A DNA stretch of 64,000 bases from a virus, in IMG/VR virus record IMGVR_UViG_3300029305_006219, one strand, 5' to 3'. Below the pieces are notes generated by a model. The model was given only the letters and a program-made list of their open reading frames with translations, was not told the origin of the DNA and ran no database searches. A program made the translations under genes and the position numbers. Every line of letters begins with the position of its first letter. The first letter of the stretch is position 1. Positions 2,037 to 63,161 of the stretch are shown one piece after another.

Positions 2037-2451
2037 TTACTGCTTCTCCATATGGGAAAAGATAATAAGCAAAACAACCCTCAGGGTTTCTAATCCAAAG
2101 TTCCCAACTACCATCTGTTTGATCTTCTATTGCTAAAATTTCTCCTCTATTAATCATACACTCAATAACGTCATTAGCTGCATTGTAAACTGTGAGAGGA
2201 GGAGTCATATCGCTATTTGTTTTATTTAAGTTAAATAAAGTAAAGTCGCGCTGTTCATGACATAAAAGCATAAAATACTTTTGTTCAAAATGGTTTAGAA
2301 ACCAAGTTCTTAAATGTTCACGCGAAAGTTCAAGTTGAGCATCGCTAATCTTAGGCTCTTTTTCCATCAACTGCTTATTTATATCATATAGATTTCCAAG
2401 AGAGACTTCTGACGTTTGCTTTGGAATTTTATCTTCATAGTTGGCTTTCAT
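2026..2451 (-). CDS. Hypothetical protein
   Basis: 141-aa ORF. Confidence 0.35.
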   Translation of the reverse strand: MKANYEDKIPKQTSEVSLGNLYDINKQLMEKEPKISDAQLELSREHLRTWFLNHFEQKYFMLLCHEQRDFTLFNLNKTNSDMTPPLTVYNAANDVIECMINRGEILAIEDQTDGSWELWIRNPEGCFAYYLFPYGEAVIEY

Positions 2452-2704
2452 TTTTCTTTCTCCTTAAATTGTTCTATATATAATAATTATAATTTAATTT
2501 TTTATTTTTGTCAAGCTTCTGTTTTTATATATAAACCGCAATTGCAAATAGTCCCCTAAGGTGATTCACGAAAATCTTTACACATACATTTAGTATCTTC
2601 ATTTCGAAATTCTTTTAGCACACAAGGACAATGTCCTTCAGCAGCATTAATAGCTGTGCGGATCTCAGCGGCAAGTTCATCACTAGCATATCTTTTAATG
2701 ATCA

Positions 2705-3187
2705 TTAACTAATCCTTTCTGCGTATTGATTGGGAGAAGCCAATTTTACGCCAAGTATTTCATCATAATGTGACTCAGTATTTGGAATATAGCGCCCAAA
2801 TTTTATTATGATGTTTGAAAATTGTTTTAATTGAATTAATTCATTTTCAATCTCATCTTTATTATAACCTGTATAGATAATAATATCATCATTTATAGAA
2901 TAACATTCTCTAAAAACAAAGATAAGATTTAACAGGTCTTCAAATGTATCAAAAGGTTCTAGACCTTGGAAGCATATCGCGCGCGCGATAGGGTTGTTTC
3001 TATAAGCTTGTACTATTGAAGTGTTAGCAATTTCTTTATCAGGTGCGGCCACCAGTGCGCTATTTTGACACACTGGTTGGCCGCATTCACGATCGCATTT
3101 AAAACCTTTACAAATAGGCGTTTCTATTGTCATACAAGGAACTTTATAATTTACAAAATCTTCAAATATAATTCCTTTTATTTTCAT
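2705..3187 (-). CDS. nrdG: Anaerobic ribonucleotide reductase activating protein (NrdG-like radical-SAM activase)
   Basis: Sits immediately downstream of nrdD with ATGA overlap. IIIYTGYNKDEIENE and GLEP motifs resemble NrdG WVWTGY.LDEL and GGDP. The Cys cluster is non-canonical. Confidence 0.55.
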   Translation of the reverse strand: MKIKGIIFEDFVNYKVPCMTIETPICKGFKCDRECGQPVCQNSALVAAPDKEIANTSIVQAYRNNPIARAICFQGLEPFDTFEDLLNLIFVFRECYSINDDIIIYTGYNKDEIENELIQLKQFSNIIIKFGRYIPNTESHYDEILGVKLASPNQYAERIS

Positions 3188-6100
3188 TTATTAATAGGCT
3201 CCCATTTTCTCATTTTATATTCATTAGTTCTTTCTTTTGACCACGTCTTTATAGGGGTGTAAAAGCCAACGATACGAGTATATTCTGTTTCAACTGGTCG
3301 ACCACATACTGGACAAGTGCGTCCATAGAAGGCATGGTTATTATCACAAGCTTGAATCTTGGTATTAAAAGCAAAATATGTTACTCCTGCATCAGAGATA
3401 TAATTAACCATATCCCAAGCCTTATCAAAACTATCAAATGGGGCATCGATATTGGCGTGTAGGATCGAACCTCCATTGCAATATCCATCAAACTCTGCGG
3501 CGATACGTACGCGCTCGGCAAGGGTTGTTTGTATACCAAGCGGAATAAATTGATTACCATAAAGCGGTAAGTCAAAGATGCTCGCTTCCGGATAAAAGAA
3601 TTTGTCTTTTTTCATTAGCTTTGCGGCAGCCGACTCTCCGGGGATCTATTCAGTATTAACGTGATAATCGGCGCCTACCTCTGCAATAAATTCATCTGCC
3701 GTTTGACGTATAGTCTCAAAGATTCTTTTACCAAGCGACGAAGCATTTTCTGTATAGTAAACATTGCCAAATTCATCTGTACGAGTATAGCCAAAACGCT
3801 TCATTGTTTCATATACTCCGATAAAACCAATAGTATTATAAAGATGTTCAAAGTCGACTAACCCATTAGAAAAATTAGGTAATAGTCCTTTTTCAACATT
3901 ACGACGAATAATATTACGTACACAATGTAGTGCTTGAAGATTCAAAAGTGTCAACTTCTTCAATCCACATAGATATTCAAATTCATTAGCACTATCAAGA
4001 GCGAGGCGCGCGAGGTTGATTGTAGAGACTTTAACTGAACCGACTTTTAGTGCGGTACCTCCGATACTATTAAAATAACCTAGGTCTTTAATATCACTCT
4101 TCAAACGACAACAGTTAGAAAGTGAAGTTACTGAATCATCAATAAATAGGTTACTGTCAGACCAGCGCATATTGTGTTTAACTGCCCAGCGCGCAAAATC
4201 TTCATCTTGGAATTTACCTTCTTGTTTTAGTAGAGAGATTGAAAGTACTGGAAAAGTAAACATATTCTTGTCCCTGATATCAGCAACGGTTTCCATATAC
4301 CATTTTTGGAATTCAATAATTTCTTCTTCATAGTCAATCATAAATTCTCCATTAGGGAACTCACTGCCGCCAAATAAAGCTTCGTAGTAAGGACGATCAA
4401 ATACACTGGTATTAGTAAATGCAGATTGCGACCCATCGCGGACATAAGGTTGATTCACTGCGTATACAAAACGCTGGAAGTTTTGACGTGCATATTTCTC
4501 TCCATTTCCGCTACTCTTGATACCGAGATAGTCTTCTTCCATATCCTTATGCCAAAAGTAATACATATAAGGGATGAGATTAGGAAGTCCTACGGCGCCG
4601 GAGGAACGATTAGAAGCATAGCTAATAAACTCTTTAACAAAATCAACAAAAGTAGTTAAATGCTAAGCAGGCTCAGGATTAAAAGGTGCGCCAATAAAAT
4701 ATAGTCCTTTTTCAGCCAGGTCTTTCAGGTCATAAGCAAAACAATTATGAGATAGAATGTTGTTGCAAATAAAATGACCTGTTTTTGTTGTTAAGTCATA
4801 TACCTCAGGGCATTCATCAATATACTCTGAGTTATCAATAACTGAGACCCATCCATAGTTATATTCATATTGCTTGTTTTTAAAATTACCTTTACGAGTT
4901 AAAGGAATATATTTTTCAGCAATTTTAATACTTCCAATACGAGAAAAATATTCTTCGTTCGTTAAAGTGAAGCCAATCCCAAACATTGGTAACTTTTGTT
5001 CGAAGCTTCCAGCTCGATTATATCTAAATGGAGTGCGATCTCCTGCAAAAACCCCTTTGGAATGTAAATACATACTCAATTGATGGCATAGCGTTTCTGA
5101 GGCAATACGGATATGACAATGTCTATTTTTATATCCATCAATAGTACCATCGCCATCGATCATTCCCGCAATAATTCCATCCATAAATTCAGAAGGATAA
5201 GTCATGAAATATGATGGTAACTGCTTAGTTGCAGAAGTCTGACCTTTTAATAGTGAATTTAACCATTCTTCAAAAGGACTAACCTTTAAATAAATTTTTC
5301 TATCTCCACTTTCTGAATATGGAATATCATATTGGTCACAGATATATTTTAATTTTTCAGCTTGAGGAGAATCTAGTTTTTGAGCAATTACAAATTGACT
5401 ATTCAGACTATTTCCTTCGGAAAGAGCCATACCTAATATCCATCCTGTCTCTCTATTATAAGGAATTTGATATACAATTTCTTGATGACTTTCAGAATAT
5501 TTATTAGGCTGTATTGTAAAGACTCGATACTCACTAGTTACATCCTTTGCAGGAATATCTCCACAATCGGTAATAATAGGGTGATCTTCTGTTACAATTT
5601 GTGATAAACCATTTGCTAACTTGATAAAACGCATAGGTTTATTATTTGTGTGTTTAACTGCGCGAGTAATCTTAGTCCAACATTTTTCTCCAGTTTCTTC
5701 ATTAATATCAAGTATCTCGATATTTTTCGGGAAAAGTGCATTTTGTTCAATAGATACATCATATTTTTCTTCTGCTTCTGTATCCATATACAAAATATTT
5801 TCATACAAATTCTTAAGTGCAAAAGTGTATTCACGATGCACCTTGTCTCTTACTGTTACAAGTTCTTCACCCTTATAGCAGTAATGTTTAAAGGTCGAGG
5901 TATCAGCATCATGCATGTAGAGCTGACCAATCCATTCGGCGCGCAACCACTCATTTGCACGTTTAAAACCAAAATGTTTTTGCATCTCATAATGAATTTT
6001 ATTATAAGCTAATAATTTTCTATGAGGTTTTGGCATTTCGTTTAAGAGAGTTACAATATCTTTTTTACTAACATTACTATTGCCATCAATACTCGCGTCA

Positions 6101-6321
6101 GCTACGACTTTGGTATCGATAAATGAACTAATAAAATCTGTGTAACTTAATTGTTCATCAGCAAATCCATTAAGCTTTGCCATTTCAGTTCCAAATTCAT
6201 CTTGCATTTTGTTATAAGCAGTAACAAAATTTTTCTTTAATTTAACATTAACTTCCATATCTCCAATGATATCCTCCTGTTGTTTGTAAAAATCCTTGAC
6301 AGCATCGAGATATGTTTTCAT
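3184..6321 (-). CDS. nrdD: Anaerobic ribonucleoside-triphosphate reductase NrdD, intein-containing, read through 2 in-frame TAG codons
   Basis: ORFs 4663..6333, 3646..4566 and 3184..3615 are one reading frame separated only by TAG at 4663-4665 and 3646-3648. C-terminus has a CPVCG zinc site and a RIVGFYTP glycyl-radical motif. TGA stop overlaps the nrdG ATG. Confidence 0.85.
4744..5880 (-). mobile_element. Intein (about 379 aa) with LAGLIDADG homing endonuclease domain inside nrdD
   Basis: Starts CYKGEEL and ends ILSHN followed by +1 Cys (CFAYDLKDL, aligning with E. coli NrdD FNC-MLIDLKG). Contains LGMALSEGN and IAGMIDGDGTI dodecapeptide blocks. Confidence 0.7.
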
Positions 6322-6922
6322 GATGTATGCCAAGCTCTTTCTCTGCTTCTGCTAGAGATTTAAAGTTTTGATTTAGCTCCACACAATAAACTGGAGTAAC
6401 TCTTTTATCTTCAGATAGAGGAAGATTATTTGATAAATAATCTTCATAGTATGTCCAATGAAATTTATATGCAGTGTGTAATTTTCCACGACAACACGCA
6501 ATAATATTTGCATTAGCAAAACCCTTTAATCGTTCAATTTCTTTTGCGCTATCAAAAACCTTTTGTGTTTCTAAACATATAATTTTTCTTTTTGTTTTAC
6601 AACTATTACTCATTTTTTGACGAGATTCTCTTGAATATTCATTATTCAATCCGCCACTTTTTATATTATAGCCACTATTCACAGTATCATATTTTGTGAT
6701 AAGTTCTTCTTCTTTTTGATTAGCTTCCTGTAATGTTAAGTTCTCATATAAAATAGTCTATTCAAAATTATCCCATCCATATTTTTCAATAGCATGATAA
6801 AATTTAACACAGCCAGTATAGTTAGAGGGGTGACAGCGACGCGTGATATCTTTAGACTAACCAATATATTTTTTGCCATTTATTTTATTGGTATAACAAT
6901 AAATGCAATATTGATTATCCAT
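6248..6922 (-). CDS. GIY-YIG homing endonuclease (HE1) between nrdH and nrdD, 2 in-frame TAG
   Basis: N-terminus MDNQYCIYCYTNKINGKKYIG[TAG]SKDITRRCHP...YGWDNFE[TAG]TILYENL, then the C-terminus of ORF 6248..6682 with two C-x-x-G...GY.W.Y repeats. TAGs at 6857-6859 and 6758-6760. Confidence 0.8.
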
Positions 6923-7139
6923 TAGCATGCTCCTTTGCCCAATTAGTAAACCACTTAATAGCTTCTGGGCCTGTATAGATAGTACCATCCATACGAAGCG
7001 CGGGAGCAGCTTTTACTCCAAGAGCAATAATTGCATCTTCATCTTCAATATGCTTATAGCTGATACCAGCTTTATCCATTTTCATTTTTAACACTTTGCA
7101 CTGGGGGCATCCAGGCTTTGAATATAAAGTTATATCCAT
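6915..7139 (-). CDS. nrdH: NrdH-like glutaredoxin
   Basis: 74 aa with a CPQC redox motif, adjacent to the nrd genes. Confidence 0.7.
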   Translation of the reverse strand: MDITLYSKPGCPQCKVLKMKMDKAGISYKHIEDEDAIIALGVKAAPALRMDGTIYTGPEAIKWFTNWAKEHANG

Positions 7140-11978: not shown

Positions 11979-12866
11979 TTATTCTATATACCTCCAATAA
12001 TATCCATATGCTTTTCTTTGCTTTCTGGCAGCTGCGCAAATATTACTTTTATCTTGTAATCCTAGAGCTCTAGCTGCATCTGCTCCAGAGTCATATTCAG
12101 CAATTATGCTATTATCTAACGTGAGTTGTTGAATTCTTTTCTTAGGGCGTCCACTAGATAACTTATTCTAATAAATTTGTACCCACTCTTGGATATCTCT
12201 TTCATCTGCTTTGTATTTCCAAAGAAAGCCGTAAGCACTTTTCTATTTCTAAGCACATACCTAACTAATTGCTGTTTGTTGAAAACCATTAGCCCTGCCG
12301 CACTCTGAGGCTGATTCCCATTCTTGGATAAAATATCCATTTAAATCATACTGTAGTACAGGATAAGCACATCGTTTTGCTACTGCGCAACCAAATCTTG
12401 CGGCTATCTCTTCTCGTGAAATTCCTGCTCCTCTTAATCGAAGTCGGGCAGTTTTTTTTGAACAGCCTATTTTTTCAGCAATTTCTTTAATTAAAAGACC
12501 TTGATTCCAGCCATCAAGAAAAAGCTGAGTGGGATATAGAATCGCCCCTTGTCCTCCAAGAACTGCATTGTATCCATTATTAGGGTCGGTGCTGTCAAAA
12601 TATTCTATATAATACATTTCTCGCTCAAATCTAATTTCATCAGGGCATTTCTCTAGCGTTTCAATAATAAAATTTTGTTCTCCGTATTTTCGTATAGCAC
12701 AAGAAATATGATAATAATATCCATGATCACCTTCTTTAGAATGAGCCCTTCTTATATGTTCCCTCCACCTTGTCTCAACCCCTCGAATAGTTTCTCCTAT
12801 ATAAACTTTATTGTTTATTTGGTTGGTAATTTTATAAATATAAGCCATAAAATGCTCTCCTTTCAC
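11979..12866 (-). CDS. GIY-YIG homing endonuclease (HE2), 4 in-frame TAG
   Basis: MAYIYKITNQINNKVYIGET...R..H, then reading through TAGs at 12261-63, 12249-51, 12243-45, 12168-70 gives two C-terminal repeats KSAYGFLWKY and RKQRKAYGYYWRY. TAA at 11979-81 lies 3 nt before the dnaE ATG. ORF 12116..12340 in the other frame is spurious. Confidence 0.8.
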
Positions 12867-12932
12867 TTTGTTCTTATATATATAAGAAAAAAGTGATAAT
12901 AAAATTATTGAGATTTGACCTTAATTTTACTC

Positions 12933-19801: not shown

Positions 19802-20554
19802 TCATCCTTTCTTTAAATAATTTTCTACATCTTCAATAAACAACCAATGATAACCATAGCCTTTAGTTTCACCTTTATTACGACAACTTCTACGAATGTG
19901 AGAACCATCTGTTTTTCCTAGTGCTCGAGCAGCGGTTTGACTTGATGAATACTCTTGTTTGGTTTCTATGCAATATACTGGTTTACTATTGGTTTTAACT
20001 GAATTTATTCGCATTTTATCTAATTTAATTTTTTCTTCTTCTTTATGACTATCCCAGTATACACGAGATGCCATTCTTCCTTTTAAGGTATTATTTTTTC
20101 GTTCTTCAAAAGAAGAATTTTCTATATATTTTACATTAATTTCCTTTAAAAATACTTTCTTTTCTTCTTTTTTATCTTCTGGTAAATTTTGCCAAGTATT
20201 TTTAGAAGCAATACCAATTTTCTTTTTAGTTTCTTCTGTGTGCAAATGTCCAAGCTGACCTCCTTTTGTTAAATTATATCCAAAATCAGGATTGTCACTT
20301 TTATAAAATTGGATATAAAATTTTTCCCAATAATCAGCTTCATTTTGACTTAGCAAGTTTTGTTTTAAAATTATATGCTCAAAATTATCCCATCCATATT
20401 TTTCAATGGCAGAATAAAAAAGAGGGCTTTTAATATATTGCTTTCCATTAGCTCTCCATCTCTACTTTATATTACAGCTTTGTCCTATATATCTTTTCTA
20501 ATTTTGCTTATTAACATGAGCATAGATACACCATTTTTTAATATTTTCATTCAT
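19802..20554 (-). CDS. GIY-YIG homing endonuclease (HE3), 2 in-frame TAG
   Basis: MNENIKKWCIYAHVNKQN[TAG]KRYIGQSCNIK[TAG]RWRANG...YGWDNFEHIIL then ORF 19802..20356, ending in a C-terminal CRNKGETKGYGYHWLF repeat. Note the genomically encoded Q in YIGQS. TAGs at 20498-500 and 20462-64. AAAGGAGG RBS. Confidence 0.8.
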
Positions 20555-21666
20555 AATAAAATCCTCCTTTTAAACAGTTCTATAAATACTTCTGCTCCTT
20601 CGTCAAGAGGAGAAGCTTTGTATGGCAATAAGTTTTCTTTATCAAAAATAAAACTAATTTGCACTTTAGAATAGTATTTTTTATGAATTGCTTGAAGCTT
20701 CTTTACCCACTGATTAAACTCTGTATCATTTTTTTGTCGCCATTGGCGATCAAAACCAATCACTATTTCTTTCGCGCCATGTTTAATTAATAAATCTACT
20801 TGATGTTGAATAAGATTACTTCCACACACTGCTACCGAAATATCGTTTTCTGTCCCAAAAAAGGATGCATATTTTAAGCAACTTTTTTCACCTTCTACAA
20901 CAATTGCCTTTTGTATTTTTCGTATATTGTTTTTTGAAAAGTTCAAGTTATATAAAGCGAAACCTAATGGATGATTATATTGAACACCATTAAGAATCGC
21001 TGGTCGATACTTACCATATGCTTCCTCTTCTTTAATAAGTGTGCGCTCACGGATACCTATTAGCGCTCCATTTTCATCATAATGAGGTATCACAATACCT
21101 TGGTTAACGGGGTCATAACAAATACCTCGAGAATCCATTATCTCTTGAGTAATGCCTTCATTAAGCCATGGAGTAATGCGCGGGCGTGGTAAGTGTTGAA
21201 GGATATTTTCATCAAATTTTTTGAACTCAATTATTTTTTTATCATTATTGATGGAGCTATTTTGTTGATAATTCTTTAAAATATCCCAATCACGAAGTTT
21301 TTGTTGTGCATCTCCAAAATTCTCGTCTTCAGATGAAGCTATGCCGAAATAGCGGGCAACATACCCAACGGCGTGTGATAGTGACCACTCTTCGCCGCGC
21401 TGGATCTTCATTGCGCGCCGTGTTAAGTCATATATGTCAAACGCGTCTCCCGCGCACTCAGTGTAGCAGCGATAGAGTCGAGTATTCCCGTAGTAGTATA
21501 ACTTGTGTGATCCGGTGCAAGCTGGGTTATGGCAGATAGTGTGGGCAGTAAAAACTTCTCCTCCTCCGGGGTCAAGTTTAGGATTGCCGCCAAGCTCTGC
21601 GGTGTAATCGAAGACTTGTTGGAAGGTAAGTTGTTGTTTGATTTCGTTGGAGTCATACTTGCTCAT
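20551..21666 (-). CDS. dnaG: DNA primase (DnaG-like, CHC2 zinc finger plus Toprim)
   Basis: CHNPACTGSHKLYYY zinc finger and a VVEGEKS Toprim motif. GAGGAGG RBS before the ATG at 21664-66. ORF 21423..21656 is spurious. Confidence 0.8.
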   Translation of the reverse strand: MSKYDSNEIKQQLTFQQVFDYTAELGGNPKLDPGGGEVFTAHTICHNPACTGSHKLYYYGNTRLYRCYTECAGDAFDIYDLTRRAMKIQRGEEWSLSHAVGYVARYFGIASSEDENFGDAQQKLRDWDILKNYQQNSSINNDKKIIEFKKFDENILQHLPRPRITPWLNEGITQEIMDSRGICYDPVNQGIVIPHYDENGALIGIRERTLIKEEEAYGKYRPAILNGVQYNHPLGFALYNLNFSKNNIRKIQKAIVVEGEKSCLKYASFFGTENDISVAVCGSNLIQHQVDLLIKHGAKEIVIGFDRQWRQKNDTEFNQWVKKLQAIHKKYYSKVQISFIFDKENLLPYKASPLDEGAEVFIELFKRRILL

Positions 21667-25223: not shown

Positions 25224-25700
25224 TTATTGAGCTGTATTTATCAAATCTTTAAGTTCCGTCACAATAAGGTCAAGCGCTTCTGTCTGTTCGCGAGAGCACT
25301 GAGAAACTTTTTGTCCTTTACCAAGATATTTCTCTATGCATTGACTAATACGAGGTTGCCAATAAGTTTTGAATGTTTCTTCGTCGCTTTGAACCGAGAG
25401 GTCTTGAATCATTGAGTTAAACTGCATCATAAGTTCATCGAAATCAAGTTCTTTTGAAACGAATGTATGCAAGTTGGCGCCAGTATCTGTGAAGTATTGA
25501 GTTCCATCCTCAGCCGCCTGTCTATCAATAGCATCTCCTATTGCATTAACAAGAGCATTATAGTTGAAGTCAATATAATCAGGCGTATACTTAAATCTAC
25601 TTCCAGCTACGAAACGAGGAGTTCCGCGCATAAAGAGTTTTGTAGATTTCTCACCAGACTCAGACTCAACAGTTCTCGCATATCCTATTATGTCCTTTAA
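25224..25700 (-). CDS. AAA_24/Sak4-like ATPase, 3' exon (C-terminal part)
   Basis: ORF 25224..25715 continues the ATPase sequence interrupted by the group I intron. The exact 3' splice site is not resolved. Confidence 0.45.
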   Translation of the reverse strand, partial: LKDIIGYARTVESESGEKSTKLFMRGTPRFVAGSRFKYTPDYIDFNYNALVNAIGDAIDRQAAEDGTQYFTDTGANLHTFVSKELDFDELMMQFNSMIQDLSVQSDEETFKTYWQPRISQCIEKYLGKGQKVSQCSREQTEALDLIVTELKDLINTAQ

Positions 25701-26690
25701 TACCCTCTTTTTCAAGATATTTTAATGGGAATAGACTATATCTTCATCCATTTTAAACGGTGGATGTCATGCACTTCGATTTAAAGGATTTTCACCTACT
25801 TTTATATTATTATAAAAGCCCTACTCCTGTTGAGGAAATTTCATCCTCCAGTGGGATAGTCGTTGAACCTTCTCCTATTCGGAGCTTGGCTGCTGATTGC
25901 CCAATTTAATCAATTTTTAACATTCGCACTTAGATTTCTTTCATTCTTATGCTGTAGTTTGATTAACTCTAAGGGGTTTCCAGCAATTCACATGATTTGC
26001 TTAATGGATTGCTCCATTAAGGGCCTTATATATTTCATATTTTCGTCTCAACCGAGAGGCCTCGGTTGAATGTTCATAAATTTTATTTAAAATTTGTACA
26101 ACTGCAGCGCCTTCTTTATGAATTTGATAAGCAGAGGTTCCACAAGGACTTACTTTATTATCAAACTCTAAAATTTCTAGCATTTGTTTTGTGCAGATCT
26201 CAGTTTGACTGACAAAACTTAAACTAGGAATATTGTTTCTATCTTCTCTAATGTGAATACTACCATCTGCATCTAGCAATCCTCTTGCAAAATCATAAAT
26301 ATATTCATTAGGAATGTTTTCAAGGGGAATACTAAAAATAGAGGTTTTTGCAGGTACTATATTATATTGTGCTAAATAACGTTTTAACTCTGCCGAGTTT
26401 ATAGATACAGTTAAAGCATGACATCCAGTGTTATTAGTACGCTCTGTAATGGGCGCATTAGATTCAAAGAATGCTTGTAAATTTTCAAGCTGCTCTCTAT
26501 CTATATCTTTTAACTCAACTCTTACTCTGGCTTCATTTTTAGCTACATTTCCATCTCCAGCTAAAAATCCAAGCCAATAATATTTTTCATGAGGGTCTAT
26601 TTTAATGTTTGTTAAATTTAAAGGATATTTTCTCAAAAAACTTTCAACTCCTTCTTTAAGAGAGCGAAAATATGAAATAAAAATGTTAAG
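25700..26690 (-). mobile_element. Group I intron interrupting the AAA_24 ATPase gene and carrying a LAGLIDADG endonuclease ORF
   Basis: Minus-strand core elements: P-like AATTGCTGG (about 25950), Q-like AATCAGCAGCC (about 25890), R GTTCAACGACTA (25849-25860), S AAGATATAGTCT (25726-25737). Upstream exon ORF ends at a TAA at 26686. Boundaries are approximate. Confidence 0.6.
26001..26636 (-). CDS. Double-motif LAGLIDADG homing endonuclease (intron-encoded)
   Basis: LGFLAGDGNV and ARGLLDADGSI motifs. TTG start with an AAGGAG RBS. Confidence 0.75.
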   Translation of the reverse strand: MRKYPLNLTNIKIDPHEKYYWLGFLAGDGNVAKNEARVRVELKDIDREQLENLQAFFESNAPITERTNNTGCHALTVSINSAELKRYLAQYNIVPAKTSIFSIPLENIPNEYIYDFARGLLDADGSIHIREDRNNIPSLSFVSQTEICTKQMLEILEFDNKVSPCGTSAYQIHKEGAAVVQILNKIYEHSTEASRLRRKYEIYKALNGAIH

Positions 26691-27252
26691 CCATACGGTT
26701 TACAATATTACGAGGTTTATTATCAAGAGTAGGAACAATCTGATTATACTCATTGCCATTTTGATCCTTAAAGGTTTTGTCTTGCGCGTGAGAAATAATT
26801 ACTAAGCCGTATCCTAATTGAAGGATTGAACGAAGCGCGCTATCAAACTCTTGCGCTGCCATTTTGAAGCCCTTTCCGTAACCAATGTCACCGATGCTAT
26901 CGACGCCTATAGAGCCATCTGGACGAACTGCATTGGCGCAAATATATTTCTCACAATAGTCATAGGCTATATCAGCTGTATCAAGGATAATAGTTTCGAA
27001 TCTAGCTTTAACCTGTTCATTCTTTAACTGGCGCAAGAATTTTTTAAACTCAGACCAACTATTAATAGGTTGTGCCATGGCGCCGGGAATTGCATTATAT
27101 CCTTTTTCAAAAGCCGCCAAAAGATGATTAGGGAATTTAGTCGCGGTAGTAGTTTTACCGGTCTTTGCGTCTCCATAGAAGAAGACGCAATAACCGCGCA
27201 TATCTCTTGAAACCTAATGAGGCTAAATATCAAGTAAATTAAAATCTGCCAT
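26690..27252 (-). CDS. AAA_24/Sak4-like ATPase, 5' exon, 2 in-frame TAG
   Basis: MADFNLLDI[TAG]PH[TAG]VSRDMRGYCVFFYGDAKTGKTT (Walker A) ...ISHAQDK. TAGs at 27223-25 and 27214-16. RBS AAAAGAGG. Confidence 0.6.
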
Positions 27253-27271
27253 TTTCACTTACCTCTTTTTA

Positions 27272-29756: not shown

Positions 29757-29975
29757 TCAATTCTTGTTACTTTCATTTGCCACATCCTTTATATAATCTT
29801 TAATAACTTCATTATTAAGTAGATTAAACAGTTCTTCTTGGTTATGCTTATCTACTATTATGGCGCAAGCTTCGTTCCAGCTTAGGTTTTCAGCATGATA
29901 CTCTGCGCCTTCGTCTGTTGTTATCCAAATATCTACTTTCATTTCAATTTTAACTCCTTGCGTATTTTCTTCCAT
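29757..29975 (-). CDS. Hypothetical protein
   Basis: 72-aa ORF. Confidence 0.3.
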   Translation of the reverse strand: MEENTQGVKIEMKVDIWITTDEGAEYHAENLSWNEACAIIVDKHNQEELFNLLNNEVIKDYIKDVANESNKN

Positions 29976-30083
29976 TTTTGGTCGTACATTTTAAAAACAA
30001 AGCTAAAACAGTCTCCCCAAGACCAAAACTCTTTTTCTTCAATATCACCAATTTCATCTGTCCATTCTAGTTTAATATACATT

Positions 30084-30308
30084 TAACTATTTCCGCGAGT
30101 TTTATTCAGTCCAAAATCATATGTCTGATAGAGGTCAATATAAAACTTCTCCTTTTCATTTAATTCATTGATATTACATTTTTCAAGTATTTCAAAAGTA
30201 AAGTTATCAATACCCTTTTCTTTTGTAAATGCATAAAGTTGACTTGTTACAGGGGTATCGATACCTAAGCTGCATTTGACATGCGTTACCCAGCGCTCTT
30301 TAATGTTG
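30084..30308 (-). CDS. GIY-YIG endonuclease HE5, 3' exon (second half of the catalytic domain)
   Basis: Reads CNIKERWVTHVKCSLG...DNFTFEILEKC...GLNKTRGNS with an in-frame TAA immediately upstream, so it cannot stand alone. It matches the continuation expected after YIGQA in paralogs (HE3: YIGQSCNIKQRW). Confidence 0.5.
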
Positions 30309-31598
30309 CATTAATTTTGACTATTTTTTACTGTAATTTTTATTACAGGAAACCATTTCGGCATTTAAAGTACTTCGTTTCCTAAAATACTACTATGTGC
30401 TAATAATAGCCCTACTTCCCCGCCCATAAGGCCTAGGGAATAGTCGATACAGGTTTTTCAATTAATCCATTATTTTCTAGCAGGATAATCATAATCTTTA
30501 AGAATATAAGTTTTTCCTAAATTAATATTACTTATAGTTGAACGCCCTATGTTATATTGTGCACCAATATTATCCATAGAAGTATTAGTATTACGTAACA
30601 GATCTAAAATATTCTAAACATCCTCTAAAGTTAAATTATGATTATTGCGAATGTTTTTTGCTCTAATAGGATAACTATATTTCCCTATTTCTGCAAATTT
30701 TCTTCCATTATTAATGTCTCTTAATACCCTGATTGGAATATTATATTTAATATCTATACCACCTTGAATTGGTAAATCCCAACGATACAATAAATCTTCT
30801 TTTAAATTAACTAGCTCTTCTTCGGAGGAAAAATAATCTAAAACTTCTGTCTTACACGCTGAGTCATGATTATTTTTTCTTAATGGGTAAACTAAGTTTG
30901 GATTAACATAGGTTCTACCTGTTGAAATATTTAATATAGTACCTTGTCCTACTCCATATTTATTACCTATCTCTGTTAAAGAAAACTCTGTATGATTAAT
31001 TAACAAATCAATTATTTCTTTAAGTTGATTTTCATTTAAAGCTGCATTAGGATTTTCAGTCCCTCGTTTCCCCGAAGCGTCTCCTCCTCGGGTTTTATTG
31101 TATCCGTGTCCATCTTTAATATAGGTTTTATAAAAGGAAATCCAATATCTTTCTTTATCATCTAATAACGATAAGTCAGAAACTGTTTCAAGTAATTCAA
31201 ACTCATCAATAATAATATTGTATTCTTTCATTTTTTGCTCACACAATAGAAGTTCTCTTGAACCATGTCCAGCTTGACTATAAGAATTATGCTCCATAAG
31301 TCTAGCTCGAATATTTTGAGCCTATCCAATGTAAGCTTTTCCGTTTGGGTAATTAATTTTATAAATTCCGCTAATAATGTCATTTGGTGTCATCTTAGAT
31401 AAAAATAATTTTTGCATTTTATGCCTCCTATAATGTTATATTCATCAGTTGTTCATATATATATTATTTTTATGGAAGATGGATTAATCAAAATTTCCCA
31501 CGAGATTGTATTTTATTAAAAAATATTTTCCTCGTTAGCCACTATAAGTTAGCGACCCCTAGCAGCTACTAGGTAAAGTTTTTCATCGGCCAACATTG
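30309..31598 (-). mobile_element. Putative group I intron carrying GIY-YIG HE4, inserted in GIY-YIG HE5
   Basis: 5' exon ends ...YIGQAGT, followed by an in-frame stop VNVGR*. Intron ends in G before exon 2 CAACATT. R-like TCGACTAT and S-like ATAGTCAA lie in the 3' 170 nt. Boundaries are proposed, not proven. Confidence 0.45.
30470..31417 (-). CDS. GIY-YIG homing endonuclease (HE4) with tandem C-terminal HTH repeats, 2 in-frame TAG
   Basis: MQKLFLSKMTPNDIISGIYKINYPNGKAYIG[TAG]AQNIRARL... then ORF 30614..31297. The TAG at 30614-16 reads through into a second HTH repeat DNIGAQYNIGRSTISNINLGKTY before TAA at 30470-72. GGAGG RBS. Confidence 0.75.
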
Positions 31599-32566
31599 AC
31601 CGCTTGTCCGATATAAGATATACCAGAGTCAATGTGTGTTATCTTATATATTCCACTGGCGCCCAACGCACCTACGCGCGCCGCAAGGTCATTGACTTTA
31701 TCTCTATAGAAAGTAGTCCATATAAGCATACGCAAAGGTCTTGCTTCGCGTAGATTATATTCAATACTTTGAAGATATGCCACGTCTCGCTTATCTGCCT
31801 CATTAAGTTGAAGAGTATAAAATGTTGCTTGATTTTTAATTTCTTCTTCACGAAGTTGTGCTTCCATTGTGGCGGCCTTGGTTGCACGAATTTTTTCTAG
31901 CTCTTTGCGGATTGAGTCTAGGTCGGCGCGCATTGCCGCCTCTTCTTCTTGTAATTCTTTAGACATTGACTATTGCTTATCATAAAATAATTGCACAAGA
32001 GTGTCAATATCTTGACGTCGCTCTTCAATTAATCCTTTTTCTCTTGCATCAAGTTCTTGAAGTCTGTCAAAATATAATTGATCAAGAGTGTCCACTTCAA
32101 TATCGAACTCTTGTTCGCGTTTTTGATATTCATAATCAAGAGTCTCACAATATTGTTCAAAGGAGGCGAGCGCAGCTGCCTTTAAGTCACCTGACATTGT
32201 CTCTACAGAGCTGCTGAAAGCAGCAATTTGCGCCTCAATTCCTGCTTTTTCAATTTGCTTATTTTGAATTTCATTTATTAACAACAATTTCTATTGAGTT
32301 AATTGATTTAATTCGTCGTAAGAATTTTTTGTTTTTTTACAGTTCTCTTCATATTTTTGAGAAATTTCATTGTTAGATTTTATCAATAAGTTATTTTGTG
32401 CTTCTAAGCTTTTGCGAGTTGCTTGTAATGACTAATTGAGTTCTTCTAGTTTCTAATTTTCTTCTGCTGTATAGCGATTAGCTTTTACAGATGTGGCTTT
32501 AACCCATACTCCATAAGCAAGACCGCTCACACCAAGAAGAATTGATATTACGCATAATACTATCAT
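31583..32566 (-). CDS. Membrane-anchored coiled-coil protein whose C-terminus is the 5' exon of GIY-YIG HE5, 4 in-frame TAG
   Basis: N-terminal TM helix MIVLCVISILLGVSGLAYGVWV, then a long coiled coil. ORFs 31970..32287 and 31583..31966 are joined by TAG 31970-72; further TAGs at 32453-55, 32432-34, 32291-93. Ends GASGIYKITHIDSGISYIGQAVNVGR*. Confidence 0.5.
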
Positions 32567-41062: not shown

Positions 41063-41137
41063 TGGCAGGGGAGGTAGGAATCGAACCTACGTCTGTGGTT
41101 TTAGAGACCACGGTCTTGACCTTTCGACGACTCCCCA
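41063..41137 (-). tRNA. Amber suppressor tRNA, tRNA-Gln-like, anticodon CUA (reads UAG)
   Basis: Minus-strand sequence UGGGGAGUCGUCGAAAGGUCAAGACC GUGGU CUCUAAA ACCAC AGAC GUAGGUUCGAUUCCUAC CUCCCCU G CCA. The anticodon stem is 5 bp Watson-Crick and the loop is CUCUAAA. U1.U72, G2-C71, G3-C70 and the G73 discriminator follow the bacterial tRNA-Gln pattern. It closely parallels the tRNA-Gln(UUG) at 62245-62316. Confidence 0.75.
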
Positions 41138-61512: not shown

Positions 61513-62163
61513 TTAATCAGCCTACCATTTCCAAATGAAACCATAAGCAGATTTTCTAATTCCATTTGCACACTCTCGAATGTGCGTTGAAATACCTTTT
61601 ACTTTCACTGAAGATGTTAAATTATTATCTATTAAATACTGAGAAGCATCTGTTAAAGAAGAAAAACTTTGAATATATTCATTAGTTTTTTTATCAAACA
61701 TTTTTACAGCTTTGCTAAACAACTCTTTATTAATTGTTTGAGCAGTTTTTAATACGCCTCCTCGTTGATGAATAACAATATATACGCTATCTACTGAAAT
61801 ATTTAATTTTTTTGCCACTTCTGTTGCATTTTGCAAAACTTCATAAGTGGAATAGATTAAATCATAATCTAAATAACGTTTTCCATCTCCTCCTAAAGTA
61901 GCATTATAACCATTTTTAAATGATTGTTTTTTCTCAATCCAAAAGATTTCTCTTTCAGAAGGATTATCTGTTTCTTCAAGCAATTCTATATGAAAATGTT
62001 CAATTCCATATTTGTTTATTGCTCGATATAAAGGACGATCCTTGCATCTTTCCTTTTGATAATCACTACAATGCTCTTTCCAACGTTTTTCTATAGACTT
62101 TTCTGTTTTACCAATGTATATTTTACCATTTATATCATTGGTAATTTGATAAATGTATGCCAT
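61513..62163 (-). CDS. GIY-YIG homing endonuclease (HE6) in the tRNA cluster, 1 in-frame TAG near the C-terminus
   Basis: MAYIYQITNDINGKIYIGKT...R..H...NGYNATLGGDG...; C-terminal CANGIRKSAYGFIWKW[TAG]AI then TAA. RBS AAAGGAG. Confidence 0.75.
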
Positions 62164-62244
62164 ATTTAAATAGCTCCTTTTTATACTTATTATCAACTTT
62201 TAGCTTAACCCATCGCACACCACGTGGAGGTAGTTGATTAAGTG

Positions 62245-63007: not shown

Positions 63008-63161
63008 TGGTGAGCCAAGCGAGATTCGAACTCGCGACCCCGTGATTAATGGTGCTTGAGGTTAGATTCGAACTAACAACCTAAAGCCGACTAAGCCCCA
63101 GACTTTACCAATTAAACATACTCAAACAAGTCACGTGCTCTTCCATCTGAGCTACTGGCTC
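63008..63161 (-). tRNA. tRNA-Lys (UUU) interrupted by a 78-nt insertion in the anticodon loop
   Basis: Exon parts GAGCCAG UA GCUC AGAUGGAA GAGC A CGUGA CUU | 78-nt insert | UUAA UCACG GGGUC GCGAGUUCGAAUCUCGC UUGGCUC A CCA. After removal of the insert the sequence closely resembles E. coli tRNA-Lys and the loop reads CUUUUAA. Confidence 0.6.
63050..63127 (-). other. tRNA-like insertion element (acceptor/T-arm minihelix with encoded CCA) inside the tRNA-Lys anticodon loop
   Basis: GUUUGAG...GUUAG UUCGAAU CUAAC CUCAAGC A CCA. The 7-bp acceptor pairing and T-arm are perfect. No canonical anticodon arm could be folded. Confidence 0.45.

Follow-up and report, generated by a model that had tools for sequence, protein, structure and literature searches.

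We identified a stretch of the phage sequence studied here (the window, 64,000 nt of IMG/VR record IMGVR_UViG_3300029305_006219) that is very probably a single gene with a group I intron inside it. Its predicted product is a 397-aa protein with a membrane anchor, a helical coiled coil, a small conserved domain and an I-TevI-type GIY-YIG nuclease domain. The intron in turn carries a homing endonuclease gene, HE4, also of the GIY-YIG type. All parts of the gene and intron given below lie on the minus strand.

Exon 1 (31599..32566) encodes a transmembrane (TM) helix, a long coiled coil, the small conserved domain and the first GIY-YIG half (GIY...YIGQAV). Its ORF starts with an ATG at 32566, contains four in-frame TAG codons, which are read as Gln, and ends with ...GASGIYKITHIDSGISYIGQAVNVGR and a stop codon; the last exon bases, GT, are the first two of the Val323 codon. 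Exon 2 (30083..30308) encodes the second half of the domain, with the equivalents of the catalytic Arg, His, Glu and Asn. It reads NIKERWVTHVKC...DNFTFEILEKC...TRGNS up to its stop codon, is preceded by an in-frame TAA and contains no in-frame start codon, the nearby ATG being out of frame. For both ORFs the first-pass annotation proved accurate: the start, the four TAG codons and the terminal GIY-YIG motif of the first hold to the base, and the second catalytic half does follow the TAA at 30308..30083. The two exons are separated by exactly 1290 nt (31598..30309). Joining ...GCGGT to CAACATT... gives YIGQAVNIKERW and the 397-aa protein. At the nucleotide level the predicted ligated-exon junction is GGACAAGCGGT joined to CAACATTAAAGAGCG (also given as GGACAAGCGGTCAACATTAAAGAG); the intronless alleles read ...CAAGCCAAAGATATCAAAGAG here, which differs from the junction predicted for this allele. 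The intron lies between bases 2 and 3 of codon 323, between the YIG tyrosine and the catalytic arginine, and the Pfam GIY-YIG match in the joined protein (residues 304-385, profile positions 2-74 of 78) crosses the junction. A likeness to HE3 claimed for the joined peptide also held, as the ORF at 19805-20569 contains YIGQSCNIKQRW.

Comparison with intronless homologues places the insertion precisely. Uninterrupted homologues of 397 aa are up to 92% identical at 100% coverage, all with a Pfam GIY-YIG match, and well over 100 protein clusters show the TM helix, coiled coil and GIY-YIG domain in unbroken succession; the codon 323 site is likewise uninterrupted in 25 further viral loci. The intronless allele L001 aligns to 32566..31602 and 30304..30083 of the window with just 7 nt between the two blocks, so the insert is exactly 1290 nt long and the frame is kept. 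Removing it restores the conserved reading frame, and the product is collinear with the 397-aa homologues. It had been suggested that the coiled-coil gene might end before the GIY motif in relatives lacking the insertion, and that the selfish sequences had become fused to it; instead, the homologues run through the motif, and the supposed fusion is one conserved architecture with a dN/dS of about 0.1. Against intronless alleles, dN/dS is 0.04-0.12 for exon 2 and 0.09-0.12 for exon 1, values that indicate purifying selection on both exons, in a comparison that includes the intronless lineage and to which a very recent insertion into a now-dead gene would therefore stay invisible. Searches of IMG/VR recovered neither the ligated-exon junction as DNA nor an exact match to the 5' junction of this allele.

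Based on its predicted fold, we assign the insert (30309..31598) to the group I introns, type IA. P1 with the internal guide sequence (31587..31602, read from the sequence) is formed by the exon bases CGGU and an intron C, which pair with GGCCG and leave a U·G wobble at the 5' splice site between 31599 and 31598; P1 is invariant in five orthologous introns. The P1 loop AAUGUUG (31597..31591) serves as the P10 strand and pairs with the first 7 nt of exon 2 (CAACAUU), giving 7 bp that abut P1, and the final intron base is a G (30309). In each of the five orthologous introns, P10 forms an unbroken Watson-Crick helix (7, 4, 4, 8 and 6 bp long) that begins at exon-2 base 1 and abuts P1, and its sequence differs between alleles. 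The junction proposed at the outset (U at -1, terminal G, YIGQAV joined to NIKERW) is exactly the one required by the intronless homologues and by P1/P10 covariation.

The P3 5' strand, AAACU (31577..31581), pairs with GGUUU (30354..30350) and has compensatory variants in AUACU/GGUAU (L059), AGACU/GGUCU (L056), AAUGGUU/AGCCAUU (EF1) and UACAUCU/AGAUGUA (L047). The canonical order P1-P2-P3-P4 is not followed: the P3 5' strand comes directly after P1, and a canonical P2 is missing. Two local hairpins resembling P3.1 and P3.2 (31538..31573) separate the P3 5' strand from J3/4, and both covary across the family; a 'P3.1' helix is an optional group I element (PMC3873408). Two other pairings were rejected. 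A pairing of P3' (GGUUUCC) with the conserved loop AGGAAAC fails, as this loop is invariant where P3' is not complementary, and a P3 that uses the second hairpin's 3' strand, which would be canonical and is forced by RF00028 in L059, fails, as that strand covaries locally and not with P3'.

P4 (ACGAGG/UCUCGU), P5 and the P6 5' strand (31497..31535) are accompanied by canonical J4/5 GAAA and J5/4 CAAU, and RF00028 aligns this region in L059. The P6a 5' strand UUUUGAUUAAUCCA (31480..31493) pairs with 30469..30456 in a 14-bp helix that brackets the endonuclease ORF; all 10 counted pairs of this helix vary on both sides across the family. The 3' half of the ribozyme (30319..30469) comprises P6a', P6', J6/7, P7 (GACUA), P7.1, P7.2a, P7.2b, P3', P8 and P7' (UAGUC), with an invariant P7.2b loop, UUUUAGGAAACGAAG, and the J segment UUAAAUGCCGAAAU. 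The P7.1/P7.2 helices, the extra helices of subgroup IA, covary (30416-30440 and 30369-30410). The 3' tail AAAAUUAAUG (30309..30318) ends in the terminal G and contains no P9 hairpin. A group I core had been noticed in the insert but placed in its 3' 170 nt; the core is present, and its confinement is not, as roughly the first 120 nt of the intron contain P1, P3, P4, P5 and P6, and roughly the last 160 nt contain P6a'-P7'. P5 of this allele is an A/U-only hairpin that lacks the CCUAAG...UAUGG receptor of L059, L037 and L047, the GAAA-receptor motif carried in P5 by other family members. With neither P9 nor this motif, self-splicing could be weak or need a protein helper.

Support for this fold comes from covariation in 17 family introns, with ORFs excised or naturally ORF-less, from seven kinds of phage gene. 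In the hand-derived structure of 63 pairs, 89.6% of cells are paired compared with 38-50% when partners are slid by 1-3 columns, and the covariation score is 0.419 compared with 0.08-0.13 for the slid controls, over which the observed structure is somewhat favoured because its helices were first found by eye on the same sequences; none of 500 shuffles reached the observed values. Across the 17 introns, 41 of the 63 pairs change on both sides. P4, P7, P7.2a and P7.2b are 100% paired with compensatory changes, those of P4 including A-U to G-C exchanges, whereas pairing in P3 reaches 83.5%, and three of its pairs vary on both sides. The core from P3 to P8, including the P3/P7 pseudoknot and the P4-P6 domain, is supported by covariation. 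A covariance model (R1) built only from introns in gyrB-like, thyX, dnaB-like, DNA polymerase and nrdD-like genes matches the target at 30319-30450 with 143.6 bits (E 2.4e-32). With its ORF excised, the intron has a folding energy of -85.8 kcal/mol (z = -5.2; ViennaRNA), and the minimum-free-energy fold recovers P1, both hairpins between the P3 5' strand and J3/4, P4/P5, P6/P6a, P7.1 and P8.

The Rfam group I model RF00028 does not recover the target, either at its gathering score or at E values up to 10 on 29900-31800 and 30290-30480. Over the whole window, only an intron at about 25.7 kb reaches the gathering score, and this Rfam-certified intron is also the second match of R1. An Infernal Intron_gpI search of 30309-31598 had been put forward as a check; its outcome is negative although the element is an intron, and the test would have misled. 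The Enterococcus phage EF1 locus and ORF-less family members also have no Rfam match at the gathering score, which makes the negative at the target uninformative. The ORF-less intron L059 aligns to RF00028 over the full length, scoring 43.2 bits (E 7e-10); the gathering score, 50, is a database threshold and not a biological defining feature. We read the miss as a limit of the model that arises from the ORF insertion and the atypical 5' topology.

HE4 (30470..31417) has 315 codons and sits in the loop of the P6a helix, preceded by a ribosome binding site, AGGAGG, at 31429..31424. It contains two in-frame TAG codons read as Gln, the first of which is Gln in the L038 homologue. The first-pass description of a complete GIY-YIG endonuclease with helix-turn-helix (HTH) repeats holds, except that it counted a single TAG. 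Pfam GIY-YIG matches residues 17-98 and HTH-type matches fall at 134-161 and 259-307, about three HTH-like repeats following the nuclease domain; phrog_7168 spans residues 17-307. This is the I-TevI-type layout of a catalytic domain followed by a DNA-binding region. The catalytic Tyr, Tyr, Arg, His, Glu and Asn are intact in a by-eye comparison with I-TevI, and TIGR01453 scores 41.4 against a cutoff of 56.05. Homologous endonuclease genes occupy the same loop in L038 and L057. The window also contains at least four free-standing GIY-YIG genes. An origin of HE4 from the nuclease domain of its own host gene was considered and rejected, as neither resembles the other more than it does the remaining GIY-YIG genes of the window.

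Several states of the intron occur at the same codon. Most alleles have no intron; the endonuclease gene is intact in the window, L038 and L057, frameshifted in L027, and deleted in L050 (304 nt) and L060 (319 nt), where a KDYDYPARK remnant is left. P9 is absent from the window, L038 and L050, and is present only as a small hairpin in L060, L057 and L027. The intron-bearing alleles are 40-90% diverged; exon 2 is open wherever the contig extends, P1 is kept and P10 covaries. Mobility of the HE4 intron is supported indirectly by this sporadic distribution and by the degeneration series of the endonuclease gene. Elsewhere in the family, the genes split are gyrB-like, dnaB-like, thyX, nrdD-like and DNA polymerase genes, in addition to the nuclease gene described here, and the guide complements its own exon end (AUUGGU/GCCAAU in thyX, GGGGU/GCCCU in the EF1 polymerase gene). 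Family members that carry no ORF include L047, L050, L056, L059, L060 and L062. The 3' core is 84-89% identical to that of the Enterococcus phage EF1 DNA polymerase gene intron and of Lak phages. The same intron family is found in the TAG-recoded window and in TGA-recoded genomes (L038, L027).

The intron might be recognizable and yet dead for splicing, having lost P9 and the L9/P5 contact, with the 327-aa coiled-coil protein as the only product and exon 2 a recent relic. Only AAAAUUAAUG follows P7' and the A/U-only P5 has no receptor, as this explanation would have it, and gene callers predict a truncated 327-aa product in three other assemblies (P0020, P0047, P0085). However, P9 and the receptor were lost together across the whole subfamily in this gene, and the diverged alleles nonetheless retain an open exon 2, P1 and a covarying P10. 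Moreover, two alleles retain the ribozyme after loss of the endonuclease gene, which is expected only if splicing is needed, and exon 2 has a dN/dS as low as that of exon 1. We consider a dead intron unlikely and favor a gene that is spliced.

The first-pass annotation described the region as nested selfish elements, and an intron with an endonuclease does interrupt a GIY-YIG domain; the selfish nature of the outer gene was not borne out. The nuclease domain is of the homing endonuclease type: the joined protein passes TIGR01453 'group I intron endonuclease' (60.7 bits; cutoff 56.05), the best solved-structure matches of the domain are to the I-TevI catalytic domain (TM 0.75-0.81; Foldseek top matches 1MK0 and 1LN0), and the protein matches PHROG and PADLOC homing-endonuclease families. 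Using phmmer against PDB sequences, the nuclease domain alone gives weak I-TevI matches only and the full-length spliced protein gives none. These matches would suit an active mobile homing endonuclease that was itself invaded. In contrast, no NUMOD, IENR1 or HTH module was detected in the host protein with Pfam, PHROGs and NCBIfam, nor is a DNA-binding module evident in its predicted secondary structure. In their place are the TM helix, about 240 helical residues (helices 2-121 and 126-246 in an AlphaFold2 model of the intronless homologue P0001) and the small conserved domain. The gene lies downstream of the DNA ligase gene in close intronless relatives, as in the window, and the same small upstream gene adjoins it in two distant relatives, one of them clearly TGA-recoded. 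It belongs to a large family with purifying selection over its full length, and shows neither the DNA-binding domain nor the sporadic distribution of a mobile gene. An outer gene that is still mobile is thus very unlikely. Judged from these comparisons, the outer gene is conserved and syntenic, and is neither a homing endonuclease gene nor the product of a chance fusion; its features are those of a resident and probably domesticated gene. PADLOC and NCBIfam assign no function to the coiled-coil part; matches of this part to ZorA, PtuB and TrlF are weak, probably reflect coiled-coil composition and were set aside.

We give almost no credence to insertion of a free-standing homing endonuclease gene with no intron, leaving a gene in pieces (as reportedly in a T4-like phage, where a homing endonuclease splits a ribonucleotide reductase gene) or a pair of decayed pseudogene remnants: the negative RF00028 result at the site and the free-standing GIY-YIG genes, whose number implies that such insertions are common in this genome, speak for it, but exon 2 follows a TAA with no usable start, the 340 nt flanking the ORF are a covarying group I core, inserts without the endonuclease persist at the same site, P10 tracks exon 2, and the domain is cut between the Tyr motif and Arg/His/Glu with no shared interaction module, so that reassembly of the halves is not expected.

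For the spliced gene, we propose that folding of the pre-mRNA would bring the exon end CGGU and the guide GGCCG together as P1, in which the U·G pair marks the site of cleavage. An external guanosine would attack after the U at 31599, and exon 2 would next pair through its first seven bases with the adjacent guide bases AAUGUUG, giving P10. The terminal G (30309) would enter the G-binding site in P7, and exon ligation would produce YIGQAVNIKERW and a whole catalytic domain. On unspliced RNA, translation would run just five codons into the intron (...AVNVGR, then a stop) and so end before the catalytic Arg, His, Glu and Asn. HE4 presumably cuts intronless alleles of the host gene in co-infecting relatives, in which case repair would copy the intron in (homing). 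Given its two TAG codons, HE4 would be made only once the TAG-decoding tRNA of the phage acts.

The arrangement resembles the T4 td intron with I-TevI (group IA2), likewise a group I intron in a phage protein gene, inserted at a conserved catalytic site. In both, the ORF is looped out of P6a, P7.1/P7.2 separate P7 from P3', the 5' splice site has a U·G pair and the last base is a G; HE4 and I-TevI alike begin with a GIY-YIG domain and continue with DNA-binding modules of the HTH type. The core motifs also look alike, AACGGGGAA...CAAUCCCGUG and GACUAUCCC...GGGAGUAGGG. Unlike td, the intron has no canonical P2 but two covarying hairpins between the P3 5' strand and J3/4, an enlarged P7.2 with an invariant 15-nt loop and, in this allele, no P9. 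Its host gene itself encodes a GIY-YIG nuclease, the TAG codons of its endonuclease are recoded, and RF00028 is blind to it. The EF1 DNA polymerase gene intron belongs to the same family (3' core 84% identical over 104 nt) and shares P1, P3, the hairpins, P4 and the ORF-bracketing P6a layout. It differs in its host gene, in compensatory P3/P8 sequence, in a P9 with a GNRA-like loop and in its standard genetic code.

The nearest deposited relative of the host genome, and only a distant one, is phAss-1 of the 'Caudoviricetes code 15 clade' (OQ749652; PMC10607447), with a genome of about 130-136 kb in which TAG is read as an amino acid and which has a tRNA-Sup-CTA. Its homologue of the host gene is 32% identical over residues 204-396; the main text of PMC10607447 contains none of the words intron, homing and GIY-YIG. 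A recoded group I intron endonuclease with in-frame recoded stops is described for TGA-recoded 'Agate' gut phages by Borges et al. (10.1101/2021.08.26.457843), who also propose that recoding delays the endonuclease until late infection. In Agate TGA is read as Trp, whereas in the window TAG is read as Gln.

An intron with a homing endonuclease is a well-known kind of selfish DNA, and current knowledge of the group I mechanism is left unchanged by these results; the subfamily found here is missed by the standard Rfam model. We tentatively suggest, as a possibility, that this is an uncatalogued and widespread IA-type subfamily of gut and Firmicutes phages (phAss-like, TGA-recoded, Lak and Enterococcus phages), marked by two hairpins after the P3 5' strand that replace P2 and by the invariant P7.2 loop, and that its homing endonuclease has specialized on the DNA of a domesticated relative's catalytic motif. 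If so, the outer gene would encode a membrane-tethered, domesticated I-TevI-type nuclease. The host protein itself, predicted to be a coiled-coil nuclease that is anchored in the membrane and has an I-TevI-like domain, is common among these phages. Where the intron is not recognized, the host gene would be annotated as a truncated coiled-coil protein and an orphan fragment. With the subfamily below the Rfam threshold, other split genes are likely annotated as fragments as well; core genes of replication and nucleotide metabolism are interrupted by this family in many contigs of gut phages, which affects gene calls as well as protein-family statistics for these phages.

A single gene here displays almost the whole homing cycle, from the empty site through the intact and frameshifted to the deleted endonuclease gene. 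The endonuclease gene carries the recoded stop of the resident phage, TAG in the window and TGA in L038. Recoded stops in this gene fit the earlier idea of delayed endonuclease synthesis, and suggest that mobile endonuclease genes either become adapted to the genetic code that their host genome uses or are restricted by it.

All genes in this region of the window lie on the minus strand, and many ORFs in the window contain in-frame TAG codons at sites occupied by glutamine in homologues, so TAG is decoded as glutamine. A tRNA with the anticodon CTA is located at 41063-41137, and among deposited genomes the phAss-1 group ("code 15 clade"; PMC10607447) comes closest. The exon 1 ORF (start at 32566, minus strand) includes four TAG codons and reaches a TGA stop following ...YIGQAVNVGR. 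A 315-codon endonuclease ORF (31417..30470, minus strand) contains two TAG codons, has an AGGAGG ribosome-binding site, and encodes a GIY-YIG domain and repeated HTH-like modules. Exon 2 (30308..30083, minus strand; NIKERW...TRGNS and a stop) has no in-frame start codon. Joining the exons at GCGGT|CAACATT yields a 397-aa product whose Pfam GIY-YIG match (residues 304-385) straddles the junction. The split GIY-YIG gene with an intervening ORF, as described in the first-pass annotation, is thus confirmed.

A protein search identified 1567 relatives of the joined product, the best of which are 397 aa long, with 86-92% identity, 100% query coverage and PF01541. DNA of the intronless allele L001 aligns with 32566..31602 and 30304..30083 of the window, and the gap of 7 bases is the exact number remaining at the window junction; the codon at the insertion site is unbroken in 25 viral-contig loci. 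Three protein clusters of 321-327 aa without a Pfam domain (P0020, P0047 and P0085) have the same ...AVNVGR ending as exon 1, and are additional intron-bearing alleles that were gene-called as truncated. The intron is absent from the majority of alleles, carries an intact endonuclease gene in the window, L038 and L057, and carries a frameshifted one in L027. In L050 (304 nt) and L060 (319 nt), the endonuclease gene has been deleted to a last-codon remnant and the ribozyme is kept, which argues for a need for splicing. Relative to intronless alleles, dN/dS is similar in exon 2 (0.04-0.12) and exon 1 (0.09-0.12).

The fold of the intron, derived from family sequences, comprises P1 (CGGU|C with GGCCG) with the P10 strand within its loop, P3 (AAACU with GGUUU), two local hairpins between P3 and J3/4 (UAA), P4 (ACGAGG with UCUCGU) and P5 with classical GAAA and CAAU junctions, P6 and a 14-bp P6a that encloses the ORF, P7 (GACUA with UAGUC), P7.1, a two-part P7.2 with an invariant 15-nt loop, P8 and a terminal G at the intron end. 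In a MAFFT alignment of 17 introns, with ORFs cut out or naturally missing, 89.6% of cells at paired positions are paired, compared with 38-50% after the 3' partners are shifted by 1-3 columns; both sides change in 41 of 63 pairs, and the covariation score is 0.419 versus 0.08-0.13 in the shifted controls. All 500 shuffles fell short of the observed pairing and covariation values. An independent covariance model trained solely on introns from other genes matches 30319-30450 (minus strand) with 143.6 bits (E 2.4e-32), all aligned pairs being canonical; the model's second match is the Rfam-certified intron at approximately 25.7 kb. Folding of the ORF-excised intron with ViennaRNA gave z = -5.2 and recovered most helices. 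Together with the precise insertion, these results support the earlier intron reading, and the insert is, as judged from sequence, a group I intron. The Infernal check proposed with that reading detects nothing, though: Rfam Intron_gpI (RF00028) has no match at the site, including in searches of short sub-windows with E allowed as high as 10.

P1 is common to five orthologous introns (window, L038, L050, L060 and L057), and in each of them the bases immediately 5' to the P1 strand can form Watson-Crick pairs with the start of that allele's own exon 2. This P10 complementarity covers 7, 4, 4, 8 and 6 exon 2 bases, respectively, and its sequence varies from allele to allele. The covariation fixes the exon junction put forward in the first-pass annotation, and would be hard to explain other than by selection for exon ligation. 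Two elements, the P9 hairpin and the P5 GAAA-receptor motif that other family members keep, have been lost from the host-gene intron subfamily, and this is a caveat on the efficiency of the predicted splicing.

BLASTN revealed that 30458..30355 shares 84-89% identity with two other phage sequences, the second intervening sequence in the Enterococcus phage EF1 DNA polymerase gene and Lak megaphages. Pattern scans recovered about 30 loci with the conserved core, in gyrB-resembling, dnaB-like helicase, thyX, nrdD-like and DNA polymerase genes, one other gene (L047) and orthologues of the window host gene. A GIY-YIG ORF is usual, and four copies are ORF-less; one of these, L059, matches RF00028 across the whole model with 43.2 bits (E 7e-10), slightly below the gathering score of 50 bits, which is reached by none of the tested family members. 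L047 (ODLE01004987.1) carries two family introns less than 1.3 kb apart on one contig, the first (oriented ~2450-2800) with a diverged core and the second (~3730-3990) ORF-less. In EF1 (L003, MF001358), the second intron (2192-3181) has no intron annotation; the polymerase gene is annotated as separate CDSs, and the 2358-3026 ORF and the next CDS are labeled 'hypothetical protein'. The core also occurs in Prevotella Lak megaphages (MK250015-19) and on two contigs from Clostridia bins (L065 and L066; MAGs of Clostridium sp. and Intestinibacter sp.), so the family spans very different phage lineages.

The C-terminal domain of the host protein scores above the cutoff of TIGR01453 ("group I intron endonuclease"). 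In the AlphaFold2 model of P0001, an intronless homologue (mean pLDDT 80.6), residues 2-121 and 126-246 form helices, residues 250-298 a small domain and residues 305-383 a GIY-YIG fold. The top solved-structure matches of the nuclease are the I-TevI catalytic domain (target TM-scores 0.75-0.81). In the sequence alignment with I-TevI, the intron falls after the YVG tyrosine and before Arg27, so that exon 1 has the catalytic Tyr residues and exon 2 has Arg, His, Glu and Asn. The first-pass annotation had considered the arrangement to be nested selfish elements fused to a coiled-coil gene. Neither framing is supported. A mobile endonuclease gene and an accidental fusion are both disfavored: scans against protein families gave no DNA-binding module for the host protein, its C-terminal 180 residues are highly conserved over 50 homologues, and the gene keeps its position. 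In its close intronless relatives it lies downstream of the DNA ligase gene, and in two distant relatives, one of them clearly TGA-recoded, it adjoins the same small upstream gene. The host gene is best read as a resident and probably domesticated nuclease gene.

Homing-type endonucleases are unusually abundant in this genome. Four further GIY-YIG ORFs (minus strand) appear to be free-standing and intergenic: 6251-7012 after an nrdD-like gene, 11982-12920 after the DNA polymerase III alpha gene, 19805-20569 between a primase-like gene and its neighbor, and 61516-62199 among tRNA genes. A second group I intron at 25713-26068 (minus strand; RF00028 78 bits, family model 32 bits) lies just downstream of a LAGLIDADG-like ORF (26004-26699, minus strand; WLGFLAGDGNV), and an AAA_24-like gene (26689-27258 and 25227-25721) appears to be interrupted by the two. 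At 63011-63161 (minus strand), Rfam predicts a tRNA over 151 nt that ARAGORN does not call, with normal acceptor, D and T arms and an insertion of ~80 nt within the anticodon loop that itself includes a T-arm-like GGUUGUUAGUUCGAAUCUAACC; possible readings are a tRNA gene that has been interrupted and a tRNA fragment nested in another.

Phage genes with group I introns that encode GIY-YIG homing endonucleases are well known, the T4 td gene and its I-TevI being the textbook case. For gut phages with alternative codes, Borges et al. (bioRxiv 10.1101/2021.08.26.457843) have already noted recoded endonuclease genes within introns. The window intron is therefore a further example of an established element type. 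What is new or unusual is the atypical 5' topology of the predicted fold, with P2 absent and two hairpins separating P3 from J3/4 (the literature lists a "P3.1" helix as an optional group I element; PMC3873408), a family that goes undetected by RF00028 at its gathering score among members tested, and the target, as invader and invaded gene encode catalytic domains of one kind. In the host-gene orthologues L038, L027, L010-L013, L022 and L028, TGA encodes the conserved RW-motif Trp, and in L038 it also encodes one conserved Trp of the intron endonuclease. Thus, the host gene and intron family occur both in TGA-to-Trp phages and in the TAG-to-Gln phage studied here, and the recoded stop codon in the endonuclease gene is that of the resident genome.
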